DNA from: Neodothiora populina
Taxonomy: Eukaryota
DNA: 64,000 nucleotides
Assembly: GCF_041146345.1 (NCBI RefSeq)
Contig: NW_027191409.1
Span: forward strand, 1,240,001-1,304,000
Direction: 5' to 3'
The notes under the pieces are model-generated. The model saw nothing but the letters and a program-made list of their open reading frames with translations. It did no database searches and was not told the origin of the DNA. This document shows, piece by piece, positions 846 through 26,347 of this stretch (its first letter is position 1; each line of letters starts with the position of its first letter). The position numbers and the translations under genes were made by a program.

Positions 846-1612
846 CTACAAAGCGATAATACCAGCCAAGACACCCATTGCACCAATGGCGTATCCAGCG
901 ATGGTGGGCAGGGCAGCGGCACCGGCAGCACTAGTGGAAGAAGCGACAGCGGCGCTCGAGGCACCGCTCGAGGCTGCGCTTGTTGCACTGCTGCTGGGAG
1001 AGGCGTCGCTTGAAGAGCCATTCGCGTTACCTGCGTTTGTGAGAGCCGATGCAGTGACGCCCGTGCTGTTGGCGCAATTTGAGTTGTATTGCTCTGTTGA
1101 CAAAGATGCCTGCGTGAAAGTGATGTCTGCGCACTGATCGGGGCGAAAAGCGTCAGAAGAAGGTTCTAGTTTGCCGTCATAGGAAGGAGATTACTCACGT
1201 TGTAGAGTCCACCGCTCGGATCACCGTTGGTAATGACCTGGATAGTGGCATTTGTTCCCTCGGAGATCATACTCTTGACATCATCCGGGATGTGAATGGT
1301 GTTTCCGTTGATGCAGAAGTTCTCGGGCCCTTGTTCCTGGAAGGTAGGCACGAGAGTGATGTTGAAGTTCGAGCCGGGATCGTTGCCGAGTCCGAGCAAG
1401 ACCTGGACTTTGGCTGATGTGTGGCCCATGAGCAGCTGGATGGGGGCACCGCTCATGGGGAACTGTGTTCGGTTCGACGATACGGCGTCTTGACCGCCGC
1501 AGGGGAAGGTGCTCAGGATGTCCTCGTCGAAGCCGCGCGCGGCTGGGTAGACGAGCTTGAAATGCGCGGATGCTAGAGGCAGCAGAGCCGAGAAGAGGAG
1601 TTGGGAACGCAT
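846..1612 (-). CDS. BIM1: GPI-anchored copper acquisition factor, Bim1/Cbi1-like (X325, LPMO-like His-brace family); exons 1612-1199, 1133-846; ~233 aa
   Basis: Signal peptide MRSQLLFSALLPLASA is followed by N-terminal His (HFKLVYPAARGFDED..PCGG). A second His lies at mature position 48 (LMGH), and NATIQ..GDPSGGLYN|CADI is joined across a 65-nt GT-AG intron. The Ser/Ala-rich stalk and hydrophobic C-terminus fit a GPI signal. Confidence 0.88.
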
Positions 1613-2909
1613 GCTTGCTGTATGCGTCTTGACTGTGATTCAATTGACTCGTGTCTTAAGTATGATGACTTATTAGAAGTGATAGTCGGACAATTCTGAA
1701 CAGGCACAAGATGATCAACGGGGCAGAAGAGAGTGGGTGAATGAAAATACAAAAAAACCTACCACATGGACGTGGAAACAATCGAGATATATACTTCACC
1801 AGACCCCCCTCAGCGCCCTCTACAGCCCTCCGAAACCCTCCCACTTACCTTACCTTGATCATGGCTAGACCTACCTACCTTACTGACATAGTAAAACGTC
1901 CCCATCTATAGCCTACCGTAGGCTAAGCTCCCGAAAAGCATTGATCCTCCTTCGCGTGCGCGCCTGCGCTCAAAGTAGGTAGGCAAGGTAAAGTACGGCA
2001 GGTACTAGACAGCACCTTAGCTAATGGGTATCCACCAACCTTAGGCATTACTGACACAATGAGAAACACACACACAGGCAAGAAAGACAGCGCGATACCA
2101 AACGGGTGGGCCGGGCTGCACGGCAACATCAAGCCAGCAGAGTGCACGCTACAACCAAATCGCTTGCAGGCAAGCAGTGCAATAAACAAAGTAAGCAAGA
2201 AAGAGGTGGTTTGTCCCACCCAATCAGTGGGTACCTACCTTAGTGAAATCCCGCGCCCGGCTATGAAGCCTGGCTGAGGTAGCGCATCTGATGATCCAAT
2301 AAACCAAGGGGCCACACGAGAGTGAGAATGAGTTAGTTTTCCATGCGCCCTTTTGAGTTAGATGCGGGGCGAACGTGCACGCCCTACCGACTAAGCAATC
2401 CACCACCGCCTATTCATCTCCAGAATCTCCGTCATCGCTACAGTAGAAGAGACTTGGGCTCGAGGCTCTTAGCTTCGCTTCATCCCTACTGTATTTGTTC
2501 GGAAGACTCGGTGCTCGCGTGCGGGCGTGTTTGGGATGCACTATGGGTCGCTCGCATTGAGCCTTTGGCCACCTGCGCTCCCTCACCAGCCCGGTTCAGG
2601 TGTTCGTTCGTATGTTTAGGGGTTCAGACCCAGGTACGAGGCCACGATACGGAAACATCAAGATAAAGGTACTGTGTATCTAGGTTGGCCCTGACGAAGG
2701 GCTGGCCCGCACCATGCAAGTGTGGCTTGTCTGGATCCGTAGTGGGCATGAGTCTGGTCACTCGGAGGCGATACAAGGCTGTGTTTCAGATGCGACACTG
2801 GACTGTAGTGTCACTACTGTCGCGGAATCGCATAGCACTATGGAAGAGAGATTTTGTGTTCATCGGAGATTTCATGATTGCATGACTACACCACATCGCT
2901 GCAGTGCGA

Positions 2910-3602
2910 TTAATGGTGATCATCCTCAATGTGAGTATATCTGCCCAATAACAACTCCCCAACAAATAGACCTGCCAACACAGAGAGAAAATAACCGACA
3001 TTCAGCGTCATGACAGCAAGCATGCTATGATCGGGTTAGCCTCAGTGGAACGCCAAGGATGAAGGTGAGTGCGATTCTTACAGTAGATAGCCAACTCCAG
3101 CCTGTACAGTGTAGATGCATGCTCGGGGGAGGTCCACAGTGAGTCTGAATGCTTTGCGCTCGTTGCGCCTTGCGCTGTGCTTCACGATGCGCACTCTTTC
3201 GTCGAGACCTCTGACGGTAAGGACTGCCTCGTCGCTCTTCTCGGGGTTCGCAAGTCGCTCATCAGAGAATGGTGCTTCACCCTCTGGCGGAGCGACGACA
3301 ACATATCGGCGATTCACGGCTCTGTCATGCCATCGCATCTCCAGCGTCACTCTCCATGCTTGCAGACATCTGGCAATGATGGCTAAAACAATCAGGAATA
3401 TGCATGTCCCCGCGTACGCCCCTGTCGAGGTAGGCGTCCATGCTGTCGAGTAAAGCGGCGTAGAGTGATCTGTAGTAAACACCATGGACATGGAGCCCAT
3501 GGAAGACATGCCAGACATGGAAGATCCAGTGGACATTGACATGGCTGACGAGGTCGTGGACGGGGATGACATGTCCATGGACGACATATCCATGTGGTCC
3601 AT
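2910..3602 (-). CDS. Ctr family high-affinity copper transporter; exons 3602-3082, 3024-2910; ~211 aa
   Basis: N-terminal Met-rich motifs (MDHMDMSSMDM...MSGMSSMGSMSMVF), TPLYS..WTP..G.YAGTCIFL, MxxxM (MLAVM) in TM2, GxxxG (GLFVG) in TM3 and C-terminal DDHH. GTAAG...TAG intron. Confidence 0.95.
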
Positions 3603-3928
3603 TATGGCTAATGAAATCTGTATTCTGAAGGCAAAAAGCAGCAATGCGACGCCAGCCAGTTGATATGTGTTGAGTGTCAACACGCTGTAACTCGAGATGT
3701 AGTCAAAATGCGATAGTCGTTATTAGGGCTTGCGAGATGAGTCTTTCGCAAGGAGTGAGTTTGCGCGAGATATCAAAAGACAATGTAAGGTATGAACGTC
3801 GCTGAATGCAAGATGACGAAGATAATGTATGCCAATTGTCAGAAGTGGTGGTTGGGCCACAAACCCTCTGCTGACGGTTGTACTTCATACTGCTAGACCA
3901 TGAATCGGTGTGGAGTAGGTACGGTAAA

Positions 3929-3948
3929 TGTGCTCAAACTTGAGCAAG
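3929..3948. promoter_or_regulatory. Palindromic Mac1/Cuf1-type copper-response element TGTGCTCA-AACT-TGAGCAAG in the ctr/fre divergent promoter
   Basis: TGCTCA-N4-TGAGCA is seen directly. TGTGCTCA matches the reported Aspergillus Mac1 site and resembles the yeast CuRE TTTGCTCA. Confidence 0.7.
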
Positions 3949-4411
3949 TTATCGGCTCCCTTACCGAAATGCGGCTGTCTTTGATAAAGACTCTCCCGCC
4001 AAAACGCACTAGCGCACAGCCTGGCCGCGTCCCTTTCCTCGATTTAGCTTTACAGAGCCCGATGTTGAGACAATGGATATTGACCTTTATACAATTAGCG
4101 GGTGGACTTGAGTCTGTTTGAGCGCGCTTGGCTCATGGACAAGGTTGTGATTATGTTACAGTAAGTGGCCAAGTGATTCGGACTTGTACTACAGTTCCTA
4201 CTGTAGGTGTTTACTGCATCTCACTCTTTTACCTTCAATCTTCCTTGCTAAAACGTCTTTGACTTCTGTATCAATGTCATTTTCGACCTAATACACCTTT
4301 TTCCTTATTTTGTGTCGCTTGAGTCGACTATTCTACTATCGCGCCTGTAACCAAGATTGCCTGGCTGGGCTTTCCGCTTCTCCGCCGCGAGTGACAGCGA
4401 CGACCGACAAG

Positions 4412-6651
4412 ATGGATATGGACCAGGGCGGCATGGATATGTCCATGGGGAGCATGTCCTCGGGCAAGGGAGTGCCGAGTTATTTCGCCATGGAGCAGAT
4501 GTATTGGGCTGTAGTAGGGGCAGCAATTGGCGCATTCACACTCACCAATGTCTATGGCTGGTTACTGTACATGCAAAGGTTTGGTATACGCGCAGCTCTG
4601 TGTGAATAATTCTAATGACCCTCTGCAGGATTCGCGCAATAGACCAAACGCCTGCGAAGCCAAAGTCACTTCCATTCGTGGCTATGGCATCTGCGACTGC
4701 CATCCTCAGAGAGTTGGGCAATGTGTCACTGCCTCTTTTGTCTATCAAGTCTTGGAGAATCCCTTCACCCACGTTAGGCCGAACTTCAATTGTACTCGGC
4801 AATCTCATCACTCTTTTAGTGCTGTCTTTCTACAAGCTTGACATCAGCGACCGCTGGTCCTATGAATCGATCGGATATCGCACGGGGTTCATCAATGTCT
4901 GCCAGCTTCCCTTACTGTTCCTGCTTGCCGGAAAGCGCAACATAATCGGCTACTTGACTGGAACATCCTATGAGCGCATCAATTGGCTGCATCGCTGGGC
5001 TTCGCGTTGTCTGTTGTTAACAGCGACAATCCACATGGGCTACTGGTTCGCTGACTGGGCTCCATTTGACTACATTGGAACGAAAATCCGAACGGACGAC
5101 ATCACAAAGCATGGTGTGGCTGCGTGGGCGATACTAGTATGGATCGTTTTCAGCTCTATGACACCAATACGGGGCTGGTGCTATGAGTTTTTCGTCTTCC
5201 AGCACATCGTTTCATTCGCAGCTTTTATCGGTATGGTTTATCTTCATGTCCCTATCGAAGTTCGCTACTGGATCTGGATATGTGTTGGCTTTTTCTTCTT
5301 CGATCGTTTCGTACGAGGATGCTTTTACCTCTACAACAACTTATCCTTGCTACATCCTAAGCAGAGGAGGGAGGGCACTATGGGCAGCTTCTGGGCACTT
5401 AAGGCAGAATTTACAGCATTGTCTAACGATGTCGTGAAGGTGAACATCAGAGACCCGCCTATTTCTTGGACTCCTGGTCAACATGTCTTCCTAACATGTC
5501 AGGCCTTGGCTCCCCTACAAGCTCATCCTTTCACAATTGCATCATTGCCTGTCGACGGTCAGATGAGCTTCCTGATACAAGCGAAGGGTGGTAGCACGAA
5601 GAAGCTTTTGCGCCATGCTGGCAGAGTTGAGCTCAGTCTACCGCAATCGAATCGTGATATCGCACGACAGTCGGCGAAGAGCGTCGCGATCGAGGGACCT
5701 TATGGGCGCATCAGGCCCCTCAAGCAATTTGACAGTGTTGTGCTTCTGGCTGGCAGTACTGGAGCCAGTTTCACGATGCCACTAGTCCGAGATTTGATCG
5801 AGTCCTGGAAAACTTGGTCAAAGGCAAGCAAAAGTAGCCGAAACAGAGTAGTAACGCGACGCATCAGATATGTATGGATCGTCAAGTCGGGGAAGCAACT
5901 GGACTGGTTTGCCCAAGAGCTAAGACAAGTCATCGAAGATGTGCAGACTCTGCAATCAGAGGGCCACGATATCGAGGTAGAGATCAGCGCCTACATCACA
6001 TGTGACGAAACATTCACGACCGAACAAAAAAGCATACTCGAAGCTCTACACTCATCATCATCACCAAAGGCTCCCGCGCAGCGCGAACACGGCAGTATAG
6101 ACGTATTACCAACGCCAGAGGAGACCGAGTATCCCAACGACAACAAAAAGGATCTCTACAAAAAAGACATGATCGAAGAACGCGAAGTCTACGAACCAAG
6201 CATCAACTCCGACGCCAACGCCGGGCCTTCAAACCCATCATGTGGACCCAACGGCACATGTTGCTGTACCGCCACCATCGAAGACGAAGACGCAGACGAC
6301 GCCATCCGACCAGCATGCACATGCAATTGCGGCGCCGGCGCAGGGCCTTCGACAACAGAGAGCTCAGCAGCCTCGAGCATCATCAGCTTTGACGAGAAGT
6401 CCAAACCAAAACCCAAGCAGCCGCTTCTGCATTCAGCCATAAACATCTTCTCCGGTCGACCGGCGTGCAGAAACCTGATCCGGAAGTCTCTGGAACAAGC
6501 GCATGGCGAGAGCGCTGTAGTGGTATGTGGCCCTGCGGGCTTGGTCGACGATGTCAGAGTCAGCACTGTGTCGCTGAGCGACGAGAGAGCTGTGCACAAG
6601 GGCACTGGTGCTCAAGGAATCTGGTTGCATACTGAAGCATTTGGTTATTAG
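4412..6651 (+). CDS. Ferric/cupric reductase transmembrane component (FRE family); exons 4412-4578, 4629-6651; ~729 aa
   Basis: Heme-ligand histidines (LHRW..ATIH; FQH..YLH), FAD motif HPFTIAS, NADPH motifs EGPYG and AGSTGASF, VVVCGP, and C-terminal LHTEAFGY. Confidence 0.95.
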
Positions 6652-7006: not shown

Positions 7007-8664
7007 TCAAGCACTGTTATCAGCGCACGAGAACGAGCTATGATTACCTTCCTTCTTCGAGAGACTGACAGCACTGCCGTAGACGCCCGCAACGCACTAG
7101 ATAACATCAGAATCAGTATATCTGCCACATGAAAAAGTAACAAGTAGGTCCAAACTCACCACAGTGCAGCATAGGAGCAAAACGACCGAGTTCAGCGCAA
7201 AGAGACAGCTCTTCCTCCACCCATTGAACCAATTGCCTTTATTCATCTGAAACCAGAAGATGGTCGGAAGGCCGAGGCTGAACCACGAGTAGAACAAAGC
7301 GCCGAGCAGACCGAGCAGGTCAGTGAAGACCGGGATTGCTGACGCGATGATCCATGCAAGGATCCAGGAGGCGGCGCACAGCGCGATCCAGCTGCTCCAG
7401 GATCGCATACTCTTCTCCGTGATGACGGCGCGGTTGTGCTTCCAGTCCCGCCAGATGCGGACATACATGTTCTTAACTACGATAGCGGCGTTGACGACGC
7501 CAGCTATGATAATTGTTGGCATGGCGATGCCCCAGGCGACCTTGGCCATGCCTGGACTAGCGGAAGTGAGAGCGGGCGAGGCTACGTCGTAGCCGACATA
7601 ACGGTAGATGACGACCGCGACAGTGATGTAAAATGAGATGGCTACGCTCTGTAACAGGCAGAGGGCCTTGGGGAAGTCAGTTGGAGTCTTCATCTCTGAA
7701 ATGAACCCAAAGAAAGCTACGTGGCCAGCATAGGCGACAACGATGTTCGAGACGCTGGTGGCGCCCTGCTGGAAGGTAGTCTTGGTTGATGGCGTTACAG
7801 CGTATGTCTCAGGATTGGCTGGGTGTTTGGTACCGACGCTGATCATGGTGATCAGGACAGCAACTGTGATTGAGATGCAAGCTACAATGAAGATTAGTCA
7901 GTGACCAGATGCTAGACAATATAGACTTGATGTCAAGAGTATACGTACAGACTACGGACAAAGCCGAAATGTTCTTGAAGGTCCGAGGGAGAGTCAGTAC
8001 AAAGGACACAACAGTGCCGATGATTCCAAAGACAATAGTACACATGGCGTGATGTGTGAGGACATTCATCTCGACGGTGAAGGTCAAGATATGTGCAGCC
8101 ATAATGAAGATGAGTATCAAGACCTGCATAACCTCGACGACCTCACGTGCGATTGGACCCGCAATACGCTCTGCAGCGTTTGCAAAGCTGTGCATGCCCA
8201 TGTGCTTCATCTTGAACTGATAGACGACGCACCCGGTATACGTTGCCATCAGACCAATGCCAGCGATGAGAAGGACACCAGGGACAAACCCGACAGTTGC
8301 GACTACATTGGGTAGTGACAAAATGCCCAGGGAGATGGTCTCTGCGATGAGCAGAGCACCACACCTCCACCACGAAAGATTCTTGTAGTCTGTACCTCCA
8401 TTCGAGTTGTCACCGAAAGGATCTTCCTGTGTGGAGTTCAGCAGGAGTTCAGAACGTATGCTACAGGACCATACTCACAAGATCTCCTTCGGTAGTTGTA
8501 TCTGCTCTACTTTCAGCTTTCTCCAGCGCTTTGATACTTTCTTGCTCGACAGATCTAGCACGATCGTAGTCTGAAGCAGTAGTGGATCTTGAGCCAACAC
8601 GGATTGTAGCCTGTTCTTTATCAAGGTGTTCCGAAGATGTATTGTTATGCTCGTCCTTTTGCAT
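7007..8664 (-). CDS. Neutral amino acid permease (Mtr-like, Aa_trans/AAAP family); exons 8664-8479, 8426-7949, 7881-7160, 7096-7007; ~491 aa
   Basis: LSWW..GALLIAETISLGILSLP, AYAGHVAFFGFISEMKTP.DFPKAL, AIPVF.DLLGL, C-terminal FSCADNS. The exon sum is a multiple of 3. Confidence 0.92.
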
Positions 8665-9848
8665 GGCAACCCCGGCCCTTCCGCAAAACGCTCTTGCAAT
8701 TCCAAATGACTGCATAGCTGCGTAATTACATTGATCCAGTTTTTCATGCACAGAGAATGAGATTCGTACGTATGGAGAGGGGGGAAACCACAGCGGACAC
8801 TGGAGTATTTATTGGTAACGTCCTCATGCGGGCCTCCGCATTGTAGGAAAGCTAGAAGGTAATTAGGTAAGTCAATTGAAGATGGTTCTGCCTTCGAAAC
8901 TATCTCCGAAGATAGAGAGCTATTGTGGCATAGCACGGGAGGTCGTAATCAATGTGAGCCTGTGACAACATGGCTGAAGGTAATCAGAATCGGGAACCAG
9001 AACCTAGAATCACATCTGGCACGAAGCAGAGACCGGGATTGGTTGATAGATAATTAAATGGTATCGAATCGTAATAGGCTTTTCTTGAGAGACATATCTC
9101 CAGTTTTCCCGTGATAAGTTGAGTTGGGCATCGACGTGCTAGTAACTTTTCTCCCTCCTACTCGAAGACTGGAGGGTCAAGTTCGAGGCGCCATGGAGCG
9201 GCACAACGACTTTTCCGCTTCCAGGATCTCACTCATCGGTTTTCTACTCTTCGTCATCATTGCATATCCGTATATTCCCCATATTACAGGGAGATCCGAA
9301 GATCTGATAGGCGCATGGGGATGACGATCATTCGAGCCACACTGAGGATATTCAGAGGACAACGAATTGAGGTTGAGCCACTCAGAGTGGGAGTGGGGTC
9401 ATGATCACACAAGCATTTGCTCATGGTTGTCAGTGTTCTGACCGGACTCCAGTTCCCCGTATACCCTTGGGCTCTACTTGTTCGTGACATGTCGTTGAAA
9501 AGGCACAGACTAAGTTCGGCGCAGAGACGATCACTGCCGCTGGTTGCGCCACATGCAGGGACGAAGCTTTCCAACGAGGAACCGCCTGCCGGCGCGAGCT
9601 CAAGCTTTCCCCAGATTGCGACGACCATTAACGTCTCGAGTAAACACCCCGATTCCTTCGACTTTCCCCTCTTCTTGACTTCAGTGAATCTAAGCGCCGG
9701 CTTCTCACCTTCTTCGGACAGTATTTCTGAGTTGCAAAACTTGTCTGGATACTCACACAGAAATCATCCGAAAGACCTGAGTTCTCGAGCCTTAGCTTGA
9801 TTGACATCGTACTCATACTGTTTGCTCGTGACTATCACAAAAGACATA

Positions 9849-10914
9849 ATGGTTCAGCTACGCAAGCGCAAAACTCCCCCTCCTGCGCCTGAGCCAAAGC
9901 CAAAGAAGGAGCGCAAGACGAAGGCCAAAGCACCTGCGAACGGCGATTCGGAAGCTGCTCCGGCAGAGCCGGTAGCTGAGGCATCCTCTACCACTGCGCC
10001 CGAGGCCCCCGTTGAGGAAGAAGCAAAGCCGGCTGACGACAAGCCGGAGGAGAAGCCAGAGGAGAAGGCAGAAGGAAAGCCCGAGGGGAAGACCAATGGA
10101 AAGTCCAACGACAAGCCTGGTGCGAAGGCCAAAAGTGGACCTCCCAAGGCCGGCGACAAGATCGACTTTGAAGGCTTTGGTGGCGAGATCGAAACGCAGG
10201 ACGGGAAGAAAGTGACACTGAAGTCATTGGTCGAGGAGAGCGAAGCCGGTGTTGTGTTGTTCACGTATCCGAAGGCCAGCACTCCTGGATGTAAGTTGAT
10301 TATTTTCCTTGTGATGCCCAAATATCATACACTTCACTTCGGTCCCATCATCGTTCAGATGTGAGACACATTGGCAGACGTCTGCATGTCCAGGGAATCG
10401 GGTCGACCTGCGCATGGCAGTAACAGATTTATGAGCCAGTCGACTGCTCGGTGAATCTGTAGCGACGTATCGACATTCCCATTACATCTTCTATTACCTC
10501 GCCTGAAGTACATGATCAACGAGCCCATGCTGACAAACACTCGAAGGCACAACTCAAGTCTGCCTTTTCCGCGACAGCTATGATCCCCTCACAGCTACCG
10601 GGCTGTCCATCTATGGTCTCAGCTCCGACAGTCCCAAAGCCAACACAACATTCAAGACCAAGCAATCACTTCCCTACCCACTTCTCTGTGACCCCTCAGC
10701 GACGCTGATCGCAGCTATCGGCCTCAAAAAGTCGCCCAAGGGAACCCAGCGGGGTGTTTTTGTTGTGACCAAGGACGGTGAAGTGCTCGCTGCCGAGCCA
10801 GGTGGTCCTGCACCTACGGTCGAGGCTGTCAAGAAGGTGGTCGCCAAGATGGGAGGCGACAAGGATGCAAACGGACTGGTGAAGGCCAAGGAGACGGCTG
10901 AGAAGGCCAAGTGA
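9849..10914 (+). CDS. DOT5: Nuclear BCP/PrxQ-type peroxiredoxin (Dot5-like); exons 9849-10290, 10547-10914; ~269 aa
   Basis: FTYPKASTPG|CTTQVCLFRD active-site motif across the intron, GLSSDS, LPYPLLCDP. The N-terminus is basic and NLS-like (LRKRK). Confidence 0.92.
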
Positions 10915-11965
10915 AGACGAGAGAGCTGAGTAAAAGAAGCTGTTTGTGATCTTTGCTAGCTTGCTTGTGCAATGGGGAGGGGCAGTATTTTCGGCTGTGA
11001 TGAAAGTGGACAAGATAGTTGAAGAGGTACTGATCAATGTTTTGTACGTAGTTGTATTAATCCAAGCATGTCTTTTGTTGAGTGTATCTTCCACTGTCGT
11101 GCATGTTGTTTCGAGCATGTAGATGGATAGCAATGAGACCTCAGGCTCGAAGTCAGGCATGGCCTGATATGTACACTGCTATGGTTTCCGTATCAGCAAT
11201 CAGATAACTCCCAGCGATAAAGCAAGAGCCTATCTCCTCTCACCCGGCCCGACTCTTATCGATAGCTTCTTGCCCTCACTTTCCTCAGTCATCCAACTCA
11301 TGTCTTCGTATTCGTATTCGTACCTTTCGGCACTCCATGAAAGTCCGACCCTGACAAATCCGTACACCAGTTGACCTTCACTCAGCACCCCGTGCAGACA
11401 CTGTTCTGCCGATTCCGAACGGTATTCGTGTAAGTAAGGTATGCTGCCTGCCTGCCCGCCTGCTAGTTGTGCGCAGAGTGAGTGTCCTGCTGTGACGAGG
11501 CTCACTGACATCATGACTGCCCGCGGCTTTTGATTCCCCACACTAAGGTACCTTACCTTACGAAGGTGGAGATATTGTGGAGACGAGGGGCACGCAGTTA
11601 GTGTAAGCATGCATACGACCTGATAGAGATAGTGGTGAGCGGGACGAGGTACCCGGAGAGGAATTCACTTAGTGGTGCTGCAGTACCGTCATCGTCACAT
11701 CTAACAATAGCTTCGGTAGCTTAGCGAGACCTCCCGCTGAGAGGTCGACTTTCGGTGCTTTCGGTCTTCGAATGCTTTGTAACTACCTTTCTCATTTCAC
11801 AAGCTGCATGTTATTGAAGCAAGAATATCGGACATAGAGAATATAAACACGGCCTGCTCTCCAAGGTGTAGAAACGCAAAACAACCAGCATATCTATCCA
11901 CTCTCACCACCCTCCCCCTAAGCGTCCAAACCAACCCCCACCCAATCCCCAATCCCAGCACGAAA

Positions 11966-12540
11966 ATGACAAAAGGAACAACCCTCTACCTCGCCTACAC
12001 AGCGCCCATAAACCCGCCCTCGGCAACGCCAGTCCTGACCCTCGCACAATGCTGGTCCGGGCTGCAGCTGAAGATCCGCGACGCGCCAGTCTTCGTGGGC
12101 GCCATTGCGTCGTGCGACGTGCTCGAGGACAGCGACGACGAGCGCTTCGGGACCGTTGTGCGCGAGGTCGTGTTCAAGAGTGATGCCAGTAAGAGCATCA
12201 AGGAGACGTGTGTCAGTTGTTGGCCGTGTAAGGTTCGTTTGTTTGCCTTGCTTACTTTTCCTACTGAGGAAGGGGATGAGTGAGGTGGTCGCTGATGCAC
12301 ATACAGGTCGACTTTCACCAACCCGACGGCTCCACGGTGACGAACACCATTTCACAGGGCCCGACGGGCCAGCCGGATGATTTGTGCATGACGTATTCGT
12401 TTCAGTGGTTGCTGCCGGACGTGGAGGCTGGAAGTAAGAAGGAGGATGAGGCGAGGACTCAGTACTCGGGCATGGCGAAGATGGCCGTGGATAAGAGTAT
12501 TGAGGCTATTAGACGACTGGTTGGGGAGGGGAAACTTTAG
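11966..12540 (+). CDS. DUF1857/AtaL-like START/SRPBCC-fold protein; exons 11966-12232, 12307-12540; ~166 aa
   Basis: LAYTAPINP..PVLT..Q.WSGLQLKIR..FV.AI..C.V, VVREVVF, |VDFHQPDGS.VTN.IS, MTYSFQW, MAKMAVDKSI..IR. Confidence 0.85.
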
Positions 12541-25253: not shown

Positions 25254-26347
25254 AGCTTGGAACTGGTCAAGGAGAGTGGCAGATAAGGGAATGTGGTGGA
25301 CCAACGAAAGGTATAATATGCAATCGTGAACACCTTAGTCCTCGATATTAGACTGCTATCTTACCTATTATAACACAGACTAAGGGTAAGATACAGGTGC
25401 CTTCCTATGATGAATCCTGGGGGCTACGTAGCGTCGGGAGCTTGGCAAAACAACATTGATGCGTGCAAACATCGTCTTCGCTCGTCCACTACTCGTGCGG
25501 CGTCTTGTCCGCTTCCATGCATGACTCGACCGAGAAGAGCCGAGTTCAAGCATCGATTATGAGCGACCACTAGAAAGACCTCACTTCGACCTAATTAACG
25601 AACCCTTCACGTTGCACCCATTCTCCATTCGATTCAGATGAACACAATCGCTGCCCGAACTTCTGGCTCTGCCGGTCTACGAGTCTTTCTCTCGCGATTG
25701 TAGACTTTAGTCGTCCGAAGAAACCAAGGACCTTCCTACCAATCCCTAACGCCTCTATCATCGTCAACACCATTACCCTTGACATCTAGTAATCCTTTTG
25801 TACGATAATCAAATCCACGCCGCAGACTCGACAGCTTACTTACTATTCCCTAGCGTGACCAGTACATAGCTGCCAACAATGAAATGTGCACTGTCAATCT
25901 TGCACTTATGTTACATTTCTAAGCTTTTAACTGAGCAAATAACTTGCTCAGTAACAGAGCAAGTATTTGCTTTACATGATTGGCGAACCGAACTTGTCTA
26001 TTCCATGTATCTCTATGCTTGACCTTGTTCATCTTGAAATAATAATGGTGGGTGAAGTTCTGAATCTATTGTCACACGAATCGCAAGAGTCTCATTTATA
26101 ATCTGGGTATTGATATATTTCATTTGTGTAAACTTTGCCTATGTAGCAAGAGTATATAAAACCCCAAAGCAAAGTATAAATAACGCCGGGTTGTATGAAC
26201 AGTTTGAAAAAAAAGATTCCATCTGCGTATCGACAGGGAAACATCGCTAACATGACTTTGCAAGACGTGGTGGGGGGATATCCAGTTTCCACCAAATTTT
26301 CCTCGTACTGAAGTTCATCAGTTCTTCTTTTTCGTCGACACAGCTGC

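Follow-up and report, generated by a model that had tools for sequence, protein, structure and literature searches.

The Bim1 protein of Cryptococcus, also named Cbi1, interacts with the copper importer Ctr1 and needs Ctr1 genetically, in addition to having separate roles in the cell wall (bioRxiv 2021.12.14.472543). In Aspergillus fumigatus, the genes for a glycosylphosphatidylinositol (GPI) protein (Afu6g02800), a copper transporter (Afu6g02810) and a metalloreductase (Afu6g02820) are adjacent and co-induced (values of 11, 8, and 3, respectively), and a triple deletion mutant is sensitive to menadione but not to hydrogen peroxide, low iron, or neutrophils (Sugui et al. 2008, PMC2481287); Afu6g02810 corresponds to ctrA2 (PMC8425704). 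Fusarium oxysporum ctr3 needs the reductase gene fre9 (PMC11563359), and in Pseudogymnoascus destructans two Bim1-like genes, FRE genes, and CTR1a are up-regulated under bathocuproine disulfonate (BCS) and down-regulated in excess copper (PMC12113139). The Coccidioides ELI-1 antigen and a copper transporter are encoded five locus numbers apart and both are top spherule genes (PMC8150946). Here we analyze 64,000 nt of Neodothiora populina contig NW_027191409.1 (referred to as the window; the genome is 24 Mb in 18 contigs), in which a bim1/X325-like gene, a ctr copper transporter gene, and a fre metalloreductase gene lie side by side.

The three genes are consecutive, with bim1 at 846–1612 and ctr at 2910–3602 on the reverse strand, and fre at 4412–6651 on the forward strand. 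The order is fre<->ctr->bim1, with fre divergent from ctr. That these are three adjacent copper-handling genes had been predicted from the DNA sequence alone, and this is borne out by the gene models and by profile matches for all three products (PF20238; PF04145; and PF01794 with PF08022 and PF08030, respectively). Database proteins identical to the bim1 (233 aa) and ctr (211 aa) models are from N. populina and have consecutive locus tags. A genome search identified at least two BIM1-like loci, at least two Ctr genes, and at least about 12 FRE loci, all of which are lower bounds, and the chance of a random bim1–ctr adjacency is of the order of 1e-3, a rough and post hoc figure that assumes about 9,000 genes. 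We conclude that the trio is real and conserved, and that a shared copper-uptake role is well supported, because the order and orientation are conserved, Mac1-type sites are present, the FRE has copper-type features, and co-induction of homologues has been published. We favor, with a probability of about 0.62, the interpretation that the trio is an ancient copper-starvation module, inherited vertically in filamentous ascomycetes, that gathers Cu(II), reduces it, and imports Cu(I).

Conservation was determined among relatives from one metagenome scan with a 45-relative alignment (64 loci, corresponding to 37 groups at 90% identity). Twenty-seven loci extend at least 2.5 kb upstream of bim1, and 25 of them (17 of 19 groups) have ctr there in the same orientation as bim1; where at least 4 kb is available the full fre<->ctr->bim1 order and orientation is present at 21 of 23 loci (14 of 16 groups); the other 37 of the 64 loci are too short to score, although ten of these show a partial Ctr. 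Wherever a Ctr is seen, bim1 is almost always directly downstream of it (34/35 loci). The lone rearranged case among these 35 (L038, 1385–1768), which is one of the ten with a partial Ctr, has Ctr downstream of bim1 on the opposite strand, in convergent orientation. The nearest named proteins of the loci, at 46–91% identity and serving as rough labels, are from the Dothideales, Myriangiales, Pleosporales, Botryosphaeriales, Helotiales, and lichen-forming groups, and consecutive locus tags for bim1 and ctr homologues are present in two other annotated genomes.

Among 36 longer database matches, four contain a Ctr followed by BIM1 within a single protein: two Squamulea records, Arthroderma, and the basidiomycete Rhizoctonia. 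We considered whether these are true fusion proteins and rejected this, as the BIM1 part in each retains its own Met, signal peptide, and His1; they look like annotation errors that expose adjacency of the two genes, including one instance in a basidiomycete. The public models concerned are P0027, P0028, P0032, and P0036, and two others (P0015 and P0026) merge BIM1 with a different neighbor.

The conserved gene order does not extend into the flanks. Beyond bim1, a gene is shared within 3 kb in 9 of 78 locus pairs, and beyond fre in 1 of 36 (the mis-cut fre-side region of L020 was left out). The trio itself is in the same order throughout 14 of the 16 informative groups, whereas the flanks differ. 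Judged by gene content and order, the region is an inherited block in which the trio alone keeps its order. A tree of 38 rows is poorly resolved (9 of 35 branches starred), and we draw no claim from it about clades or the age of the linkage.

We next consider the intergenic regions. A TGCTCA core was fixed beforehand from the Fusarium Mac1 chromatin immunoprecipitation sequencing consensus (PMC11563359), and an extended motif, A[AT][CT]NTGCTCA, was defined after matches had been seen. The 809 nt promoter region shared by ctr and fre contains two such sites, one at 3927–3936 on the forward strand and one at 3941–3950 on the reverse strand, arranged head to head and 4 nt apart. These are two of the three extended matches in the window (P about 9e-4 for two sites in this region). 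Three matches window-wide compares with 3.35 expected, and the third, at 25941–25950 and flanked by a trafficking gene and a dioxygenase-like gene (both identified by eye), is within chance. We also considered the paired arrangement as a distinctive mark but rejected it, since the pattern is found at four places in the genome and a control pattern also at four.

Across the window and its relatives, the TGCTCA core is present 24 times in 15 fre–ctr regions (9.7 expected) and 26 times in 21 ctr–bim1 spacers (14.7 expected), and none of 200 shuffles reached either count. The extended motif is found in 14 of the 15 fre–ctr regions, in 14 of the 21 spacers, and in all six regions in which ctr was not seen, both unlinked loci included, with fewer than 1.3 expected in each case; its density in these regions is 0.85–1.35 per kb, compared with 0.02–0.03 in control DNA. 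When 6-mer enrichment was determined de novo, GTGCTC/TGCTCA ranked first in the fre–ctr regions and fell outside the top 15 in the ctr–bim1 spacers. No enrichment was observed in the promoter regions for a GCTG pattern, which we take to be Cuf1-type. By motif matching, the ctr and fre promoter of this genome carries predicted Mac1-type sites and the bim1 promoter does not; copper-dependent induction would be expected in this species. One copper-fist transcription factor gene was found in the genome (L085, C8:895060–898140); it is not classed as either Mac1 or Ace1, and a second could have been missed.

The fre gene codes for a product of about 729 aa and comprises exon 1 (4412–4578) and exon 2 (4629–6651), separated by an intron at 4579–4628; this is one of four fitting GT..AG choices and was selected because orthologues end exon 1 alike. 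The product contains the Ferric_reduct, FAD_binding_8, and NAD_binding_6 domains (PF01794, PF08022, and PF08030), four haem-type histidines, and HPFT and NADPH-binding motifs, and the strands and domains together agree with the original prediction of an FRE transcribed divergently from Ctr. Two features of the linked FRE are absent from nine paralogues: a Met-rich N-terminal tail with 8 Met in 30 aa (4412–4501, forward strand), located before an extra hydrophobic helix, and a Cys-rich insert with 7 Cys in 40 aa (6241–6330, forward strand), inside the NADPH-binding domain. A tail with 4–10 Met plus His is present in 13 of 14 orthologues, exon 1 of the fourteenth not having been recovered, and a cluster of at least five Cys is present in ten of the 14, with four Cys in one more and the remaining three being partial frames. 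All nine scorable loci among the eleven paralogous loci have two or fewer Cys per 40 aa.

FRE family members have six core helices and a cytosolic dehydrogenase, and given this topology and the extra N-terminal helix, the Met-rich tail probably lies outside the cell; a hydropathy scan picked out four helices only. The linkage, the Mac1-type sites, and the Met-rich tail are indirect hints of a possible copper preference for this enzyme. Two other FRE loci in the genome also have extended Mac1-type sites upstream, two at L075 (C14:604000–608600) and one at L081 (C3:2266000–2270700), and the linked FRE is therefore probably not the sole copper-regulated reductase of the genome.

The bim1 gene (exons 1199–1612 and 846–1133, reverse strand) contains a 65 nt GT..AG intron at 1134–1198, and its model is equal to database protein P0037. 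The predicted protein has a signal peptide (residues 1–16), a His-brace domain (residues 17 to about 170), a Ser/Ala-rich stalk, and a hydrophobic C-terminal tail, with the signal peptide cleavage site placed before His1 from sequence. It matches PF20238 (BIM1-like) with an E-value of 1.4e-28, and exon 1 gives 100.5 bits against a curated cut-off of 27. No other Pfam family was matched, and specifically no lytic polysaccharide monooxygenase (LPMO) family; atlas look-ups gave nothing further for this protein and nothing for the exon of a paralogue described below. The original prediction described a GPI-anchored protein with His1, His48, and Asp115 as a candidate ligand (mature numbering). These residues are present, and are invariant in 45 of 45 aligned close relatives; the GPI anchor is putative, based on the signal peptide, the stalk, and the hydrophobic C-terminus. 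The reverse-strand codons for His1 (H17; 1562–1564) and His48 (H64; 1421–1423) align with His1 and the second His of LaX325, and that for Asp115 (D131; 1220–1222) lies in a Gly-rich hairpin loop, where its conservation suggests that it could be the third protein ligand. It is only a candidate ligand because in sequence alignments it is offset by 1–2 residues from the loop Asp of LaX325.

In the wider family, 237 of 299 aligned rows have a residue at all three columns, and in 220 of these 237 the third position is still occupied by a metal ligand (186 H-H-D, 20 H-H-H, and 14 H-H-E), with most distant substitutions of the Asp being to His or Glu. This switching provides a natural series for copper-site studies. 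The predicted structure has a mean predicted local distance difference test (pLDDT) score of 76.5, with most of the domain above 90, and superimposes on LaX325 with a Z-score of 18.5 and a root-mean-square deviation of 2.1 Å over 140 residues at 34% identity; the best LPMO, an AA15 enzyme, gives a Z-score of 11.0. Foldseek returned four matches below 1e-3 (top E-value 8.2e-11), every one of them a LaX325 chain. By profile and modeled fold, the bim1 product is an X325/BIM1-like protein and not a member of an LPMO family, and it is predicted to bind copper.

The ctr gene (exons 3082–3602 and 2910–3024, reverse strand, with one intron) has a product identical to database protein P0157. The product matches PF04145 (E-value 2.2e-24) and contains 12 Met within its first 60 residues, including conserved Met38 and Met40, of which Met40 is present in 32 of 32 aligned rows. 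There is a Met before the first transmembrane helix (TM1), an MxxxM motif at 175–179 in TM2, and a GxxxG motif at 192–196 in TM3, as anticipated in the prediction of a Ctr with Met-rich, MxxxM, and GxxxG motifs. Members of the Ctr/SLC31 family form plasma-membrane trimers that import Cu(I), and on its motifs the ctr product fits the signature of the high-affinity copper importers of this family. The other Ctr gene found in the genome (C4:580297–580972) is short and multi-exon, and by eye is of the vacuolar Ctr2 type; for this reason the window Ctr may be the single high-affinity importer of the genome, within the lower bound set by the search.

We propose that at low copper a Mac1-type activator would induce ctr and fre through the promoter region between them, and that in most relatives it would also act on a separate bim1 promoter. 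The X325 protein, of GPI type, would bind Cu(II) at its surface His-His-Asp site and hold or gather copper near the membrane, and FRE would use cytosolic NADPH to reduce the surface Cu(II), the electrons traveling via FAD and two haems. Met-rich tails on Ctr, and probably on FRE, would then catch Cu(I), which would enter through the Ctr trimer. Reduction could take place either on the X325 protein or after copper is released, and the three proteins might contact each other for a direct hand-off. The original prediction went further in proposing a dedicated capture-reduce-import relay; the shared copper-uptake role is well supported, through synteny, motifs, FRE features, and co-induction, but the behavior of Cu(II)-Bim1 toward ascorbate and the bim1 promoter in the window do not favor a strict relay, in which Cu(II) would be reduced on the surface protein itself and then handed to Ctr.

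Several observations weigh against the copper-starvation module. The ctr-to-bim1 spacer in the window (1613–2909, containing the ctr 3' end and the bim1 promoter; 1297 nt, single copy, and without repeats) lacks TGCTCA, and its best matrix score of 6.6 compares with a shuffled mean of 7.4; only a degenerate Mac1-type match is present, near −360. Including the window, the extended motif is missing from 7 of the 21 ctr–bim1 spacers. The scan of relatives used patterns from the window's clade only, and the groups are non-independent. Two of the 16 groups (L027 and L037, sisters in the tree) have no ctr or fre within 10 kb upstream of bim1; both bim1 genes keep an extended Mac1-type site 250–320 nt upstream. 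Genes of the wider flanks recur across lineages in shuffled order and on either side, and part of the linkage is therefore inherited. Judged by locus number, P. destructans CTR1a (VC83_00191) does not neighbor a Bim1-like gene, and yet it is co-induced (PMC12113139), which, together with the two unlinked groups, indicates that linkage is not required. Ascorbate scarcely reduces Cu(II)-Bim1, which gives up its copper in the presence of hydrogen peroxide (PMC7529816), F. oxysporum ctr3 and fre9 alone rescue a mac1 deletion (PMC11563359), and the accessible part of PMC2481287 reports no low-copper test of the A. fumigatus triple deletion.

An alternative explanation, which we consider unlikely but worth serious attention, is that the genes are co-regulated without forming a relay, such that Ctr and FRE perform uptake and the X325 protein serves as a copper buffer at the surface, or as a wall-remodeling or oxidative stress factor, that belongs to the same regulon and hence has the same address. 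The sufficiency of a Ctr and an FRE in F. oxysporum (PMC11563359), the Cbi1 wall phenotypes that are independent of Ctr1 (bioRxiv 2021.12.14.472543), the liberation of copper from Bim1 by hydrogen peroxide (PMC7529816), and the menadione phenotype of the A. fumigatus mutant (PMC2481287) are all consistent with this, although menadione sensitivity could also stem from a poor copper supply to Cu/Zn superoxide dismutase. It fits less well with the genetic requirement of Cryptococcus Bim1 for Ctr1 and the interaction of the two proteins (bioRxiv 2021.12.14.472543), or with the finding that bim1 directly follows ctr in 34 of 35 Ctr-bearing loci. It is improbable, we think, that bim1 of this species has instead left the Mac1 regulon, leaving an inherited arrangement in which the third gene is no longer copper-regulated here. 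The 1297 nt spacer is about twice as long as those of the closest relatives (540–721 nt), lacks a site other than the degenerate match, and shows no conserved block or local similarity to the relatives' spacers by alignment or blastn, as this explanation would suggest; but bim1 retains an uninterrupted open reading frame and all three of its ligands, and because six other spacers likewise lack the motif, bim1 may be controlled by other routes, such as distant sites, ctr read-through, or degenerate sites.

Slightly less probable again is passive mesosynteny, in which the three genes would remain neighbors only through descent of the entire region from one ancestral block. NAC-beta-like, FAD oxidoreductase-like, and RNase PH-like flanking genes (identified by eye or Pfam) do recur across lineages, but they change side and order, and an immediate neighbor is in common in just 9/78 and 1/36 pairs while the order and orientation of the trio are fixed in 14/16 groups; descent of a block also leaves the shared motif and the copper-type protein features unexplained. 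The LPMO-like fold (Z-score of 11.0 to the AA15 enzyme) and the His brace would also suit a true LPMO, with FRE as its membrane electron donor and Ctr supplying copper for its maturation. This is very improbable, given that the closest structure is LaX325 (18.5 vs 11.0), that the site left open in an LPMO would here be occupied by the conserved third ligand, and that Bim1 and other X325 proteins do not cleave polysaccharides (PMC7529816 for Bim1).

A more ambitious version of the copper-starvation module, which we regard as doubtful, is a dedicated surface copper-channeling unit in which a specialized FRE unloads the redox-shy His-brace Cu(II) and passes Cu(I) to the adjacent Ctr. The outward Met/His-rich tail of FRE would catch Cu(I), and its cytosolic Cys-rich insert would act as a copper sensor; unloading might occur through direct transfer of electrons at low potential or through a local pulse of superoxide or hydrogen peroxide, and the unit could be as old as the split between ascomycetes and basidiomycetes. 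If so, this would account for the unloading of copper from Bim1-type proteins, and both the GPI protein of A. fumigatus and the ELI-1 antigen of Coccidioides would be copper chaperones; database proteins named ELI antigen carry PF20238. In any case, the conserved linkage singles out one reductase that could carry out the release step still missing for X325/Bim1 proteins, and it distinguishes a copper-linked X325 clade from the other BIM1-like gene of this genome, which is unlinked. In this fungus, as in Aureobasidium, the search turned up a single plasma-membrane-type Ctr, so redundancy should hide less.

The second BIM1-like gene (contig C13; L070:6334–7210) codes for a product 32% identical to that of the window bim1 over 137 residues, has seven introns after His1, and has a His in the third-ligand loop. 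There is no extended Mac1-type site in the 1.6 kb upstream of it and no Ctr or FRE match within 15 kb. Presumably it resembles the HAM-7/IDC2 cell-fusion proteins. Among the matches to the window bim1 product, BIM1-like proteins of Aspergillus other than Afu6g02800 have 53% identity. Ctr orthologues of the Mycosphaerellales (Baudoinia, Pseudocercospora, Fulvia, Dothistroma, Zasmidium, and Zymoseptoria) are present among the matches, and no BIM1-like protein of these genera is among the 156 matches listed (120 of 411 near-length), a possible loss. The genes flanking the trio in the window were identified by profile matches as RNase PH-like (1–247), an amino-acid transporter (7097–8474), a peroxiredoxin (AhpC/TSA; 9801–10914), and AtaL-like (11783–12283); they are ordinary genes, and their predicted products suggest that none points to a bigger copper cluster.

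Comparison of the trio with known systems begins with LaX325 of Laetisaria arvalis (PDB 6IBH/6IBI/6IBJ), which has a fold in common with the bim1 protein, with His1 and the second His aligned and the loop Asp 1–2 residues away from Asp115; the function of LaX325 itself is not known. The C. neoformans Bim1/Cbi1 protein is a GPI-anchored His-brace/Asp copper protein that is induced at low copper and acts with a Ctr1-type importer. This is a basidiomycete yeast that uses Cuf1 instead of Mac1, and the accessible text of the papers on it mentions neither a reductase partner nor gene linkage. F. oxysporum, like the window, has divergent ctr/fre pairs with TGCTCA-core sites (ctr3/fre9 and ctr1b/fre12), and its sites are bound by Mac1 (PMC11563359); it differs in that the main text names no Bim1-like gene beside these pairs, and the third gene of the ctr3 cluster codes for a SAM-domain protein.

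For P. destructans, a model drawn in 2025 (PMC12113139) with CTR, BLP, and reductase components has the same capture-reduce-import idea and is based on expression data only, and the original claim that the linkage would give ascomycete X325 proteins a function was thus too strong, this model having already been printed and the linkage having been described in A. fumigatus. BLP2 and one FRE gene have consecutive tags there (03095/03096), seemingly unremarked in the accessible text of that paper. A. fumigatus Afu6g02800–20 has the same three kinds of genes in the same order by locus number. Identification of Afu6g02800 as BIM1-like comes solely from two sources, its listing as the Swiss-Prot match for P. 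destructans VC83_07867 (PMC5810475) and the naming of VC83_07867 as a Bim1-like protein (PMC12113139). In the available portions of the 2008 report (PMC2481287), the GPI protein is not recognized as a copper binder and no cross-species comparison is made. The original prediction had left open whether the linkage was published; one copy of it was reported in that paper, and our literature search found no paper on trio synteny across classes or on Mac1 sites at bim1, although most subscription papers were beyond reach and such a paper may exist. The surprise is moderate, given that every component and a single copy of the cluster had been published before. The trio nonetheless joins three literatures, namely those on Bim1-assisted uptake in Cryptococcus, on the divergent ctr/fre targets of Mac1 in molds, and on the unexplained 2008 A. 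fumigatus deletion. The parts, the uptake model, and one genomic copy in A. fumigatus are known already, and what the N. populina locus and its relatives seem to add is the breadth of the arrangement, its shared control signal, and the features of its FRE.

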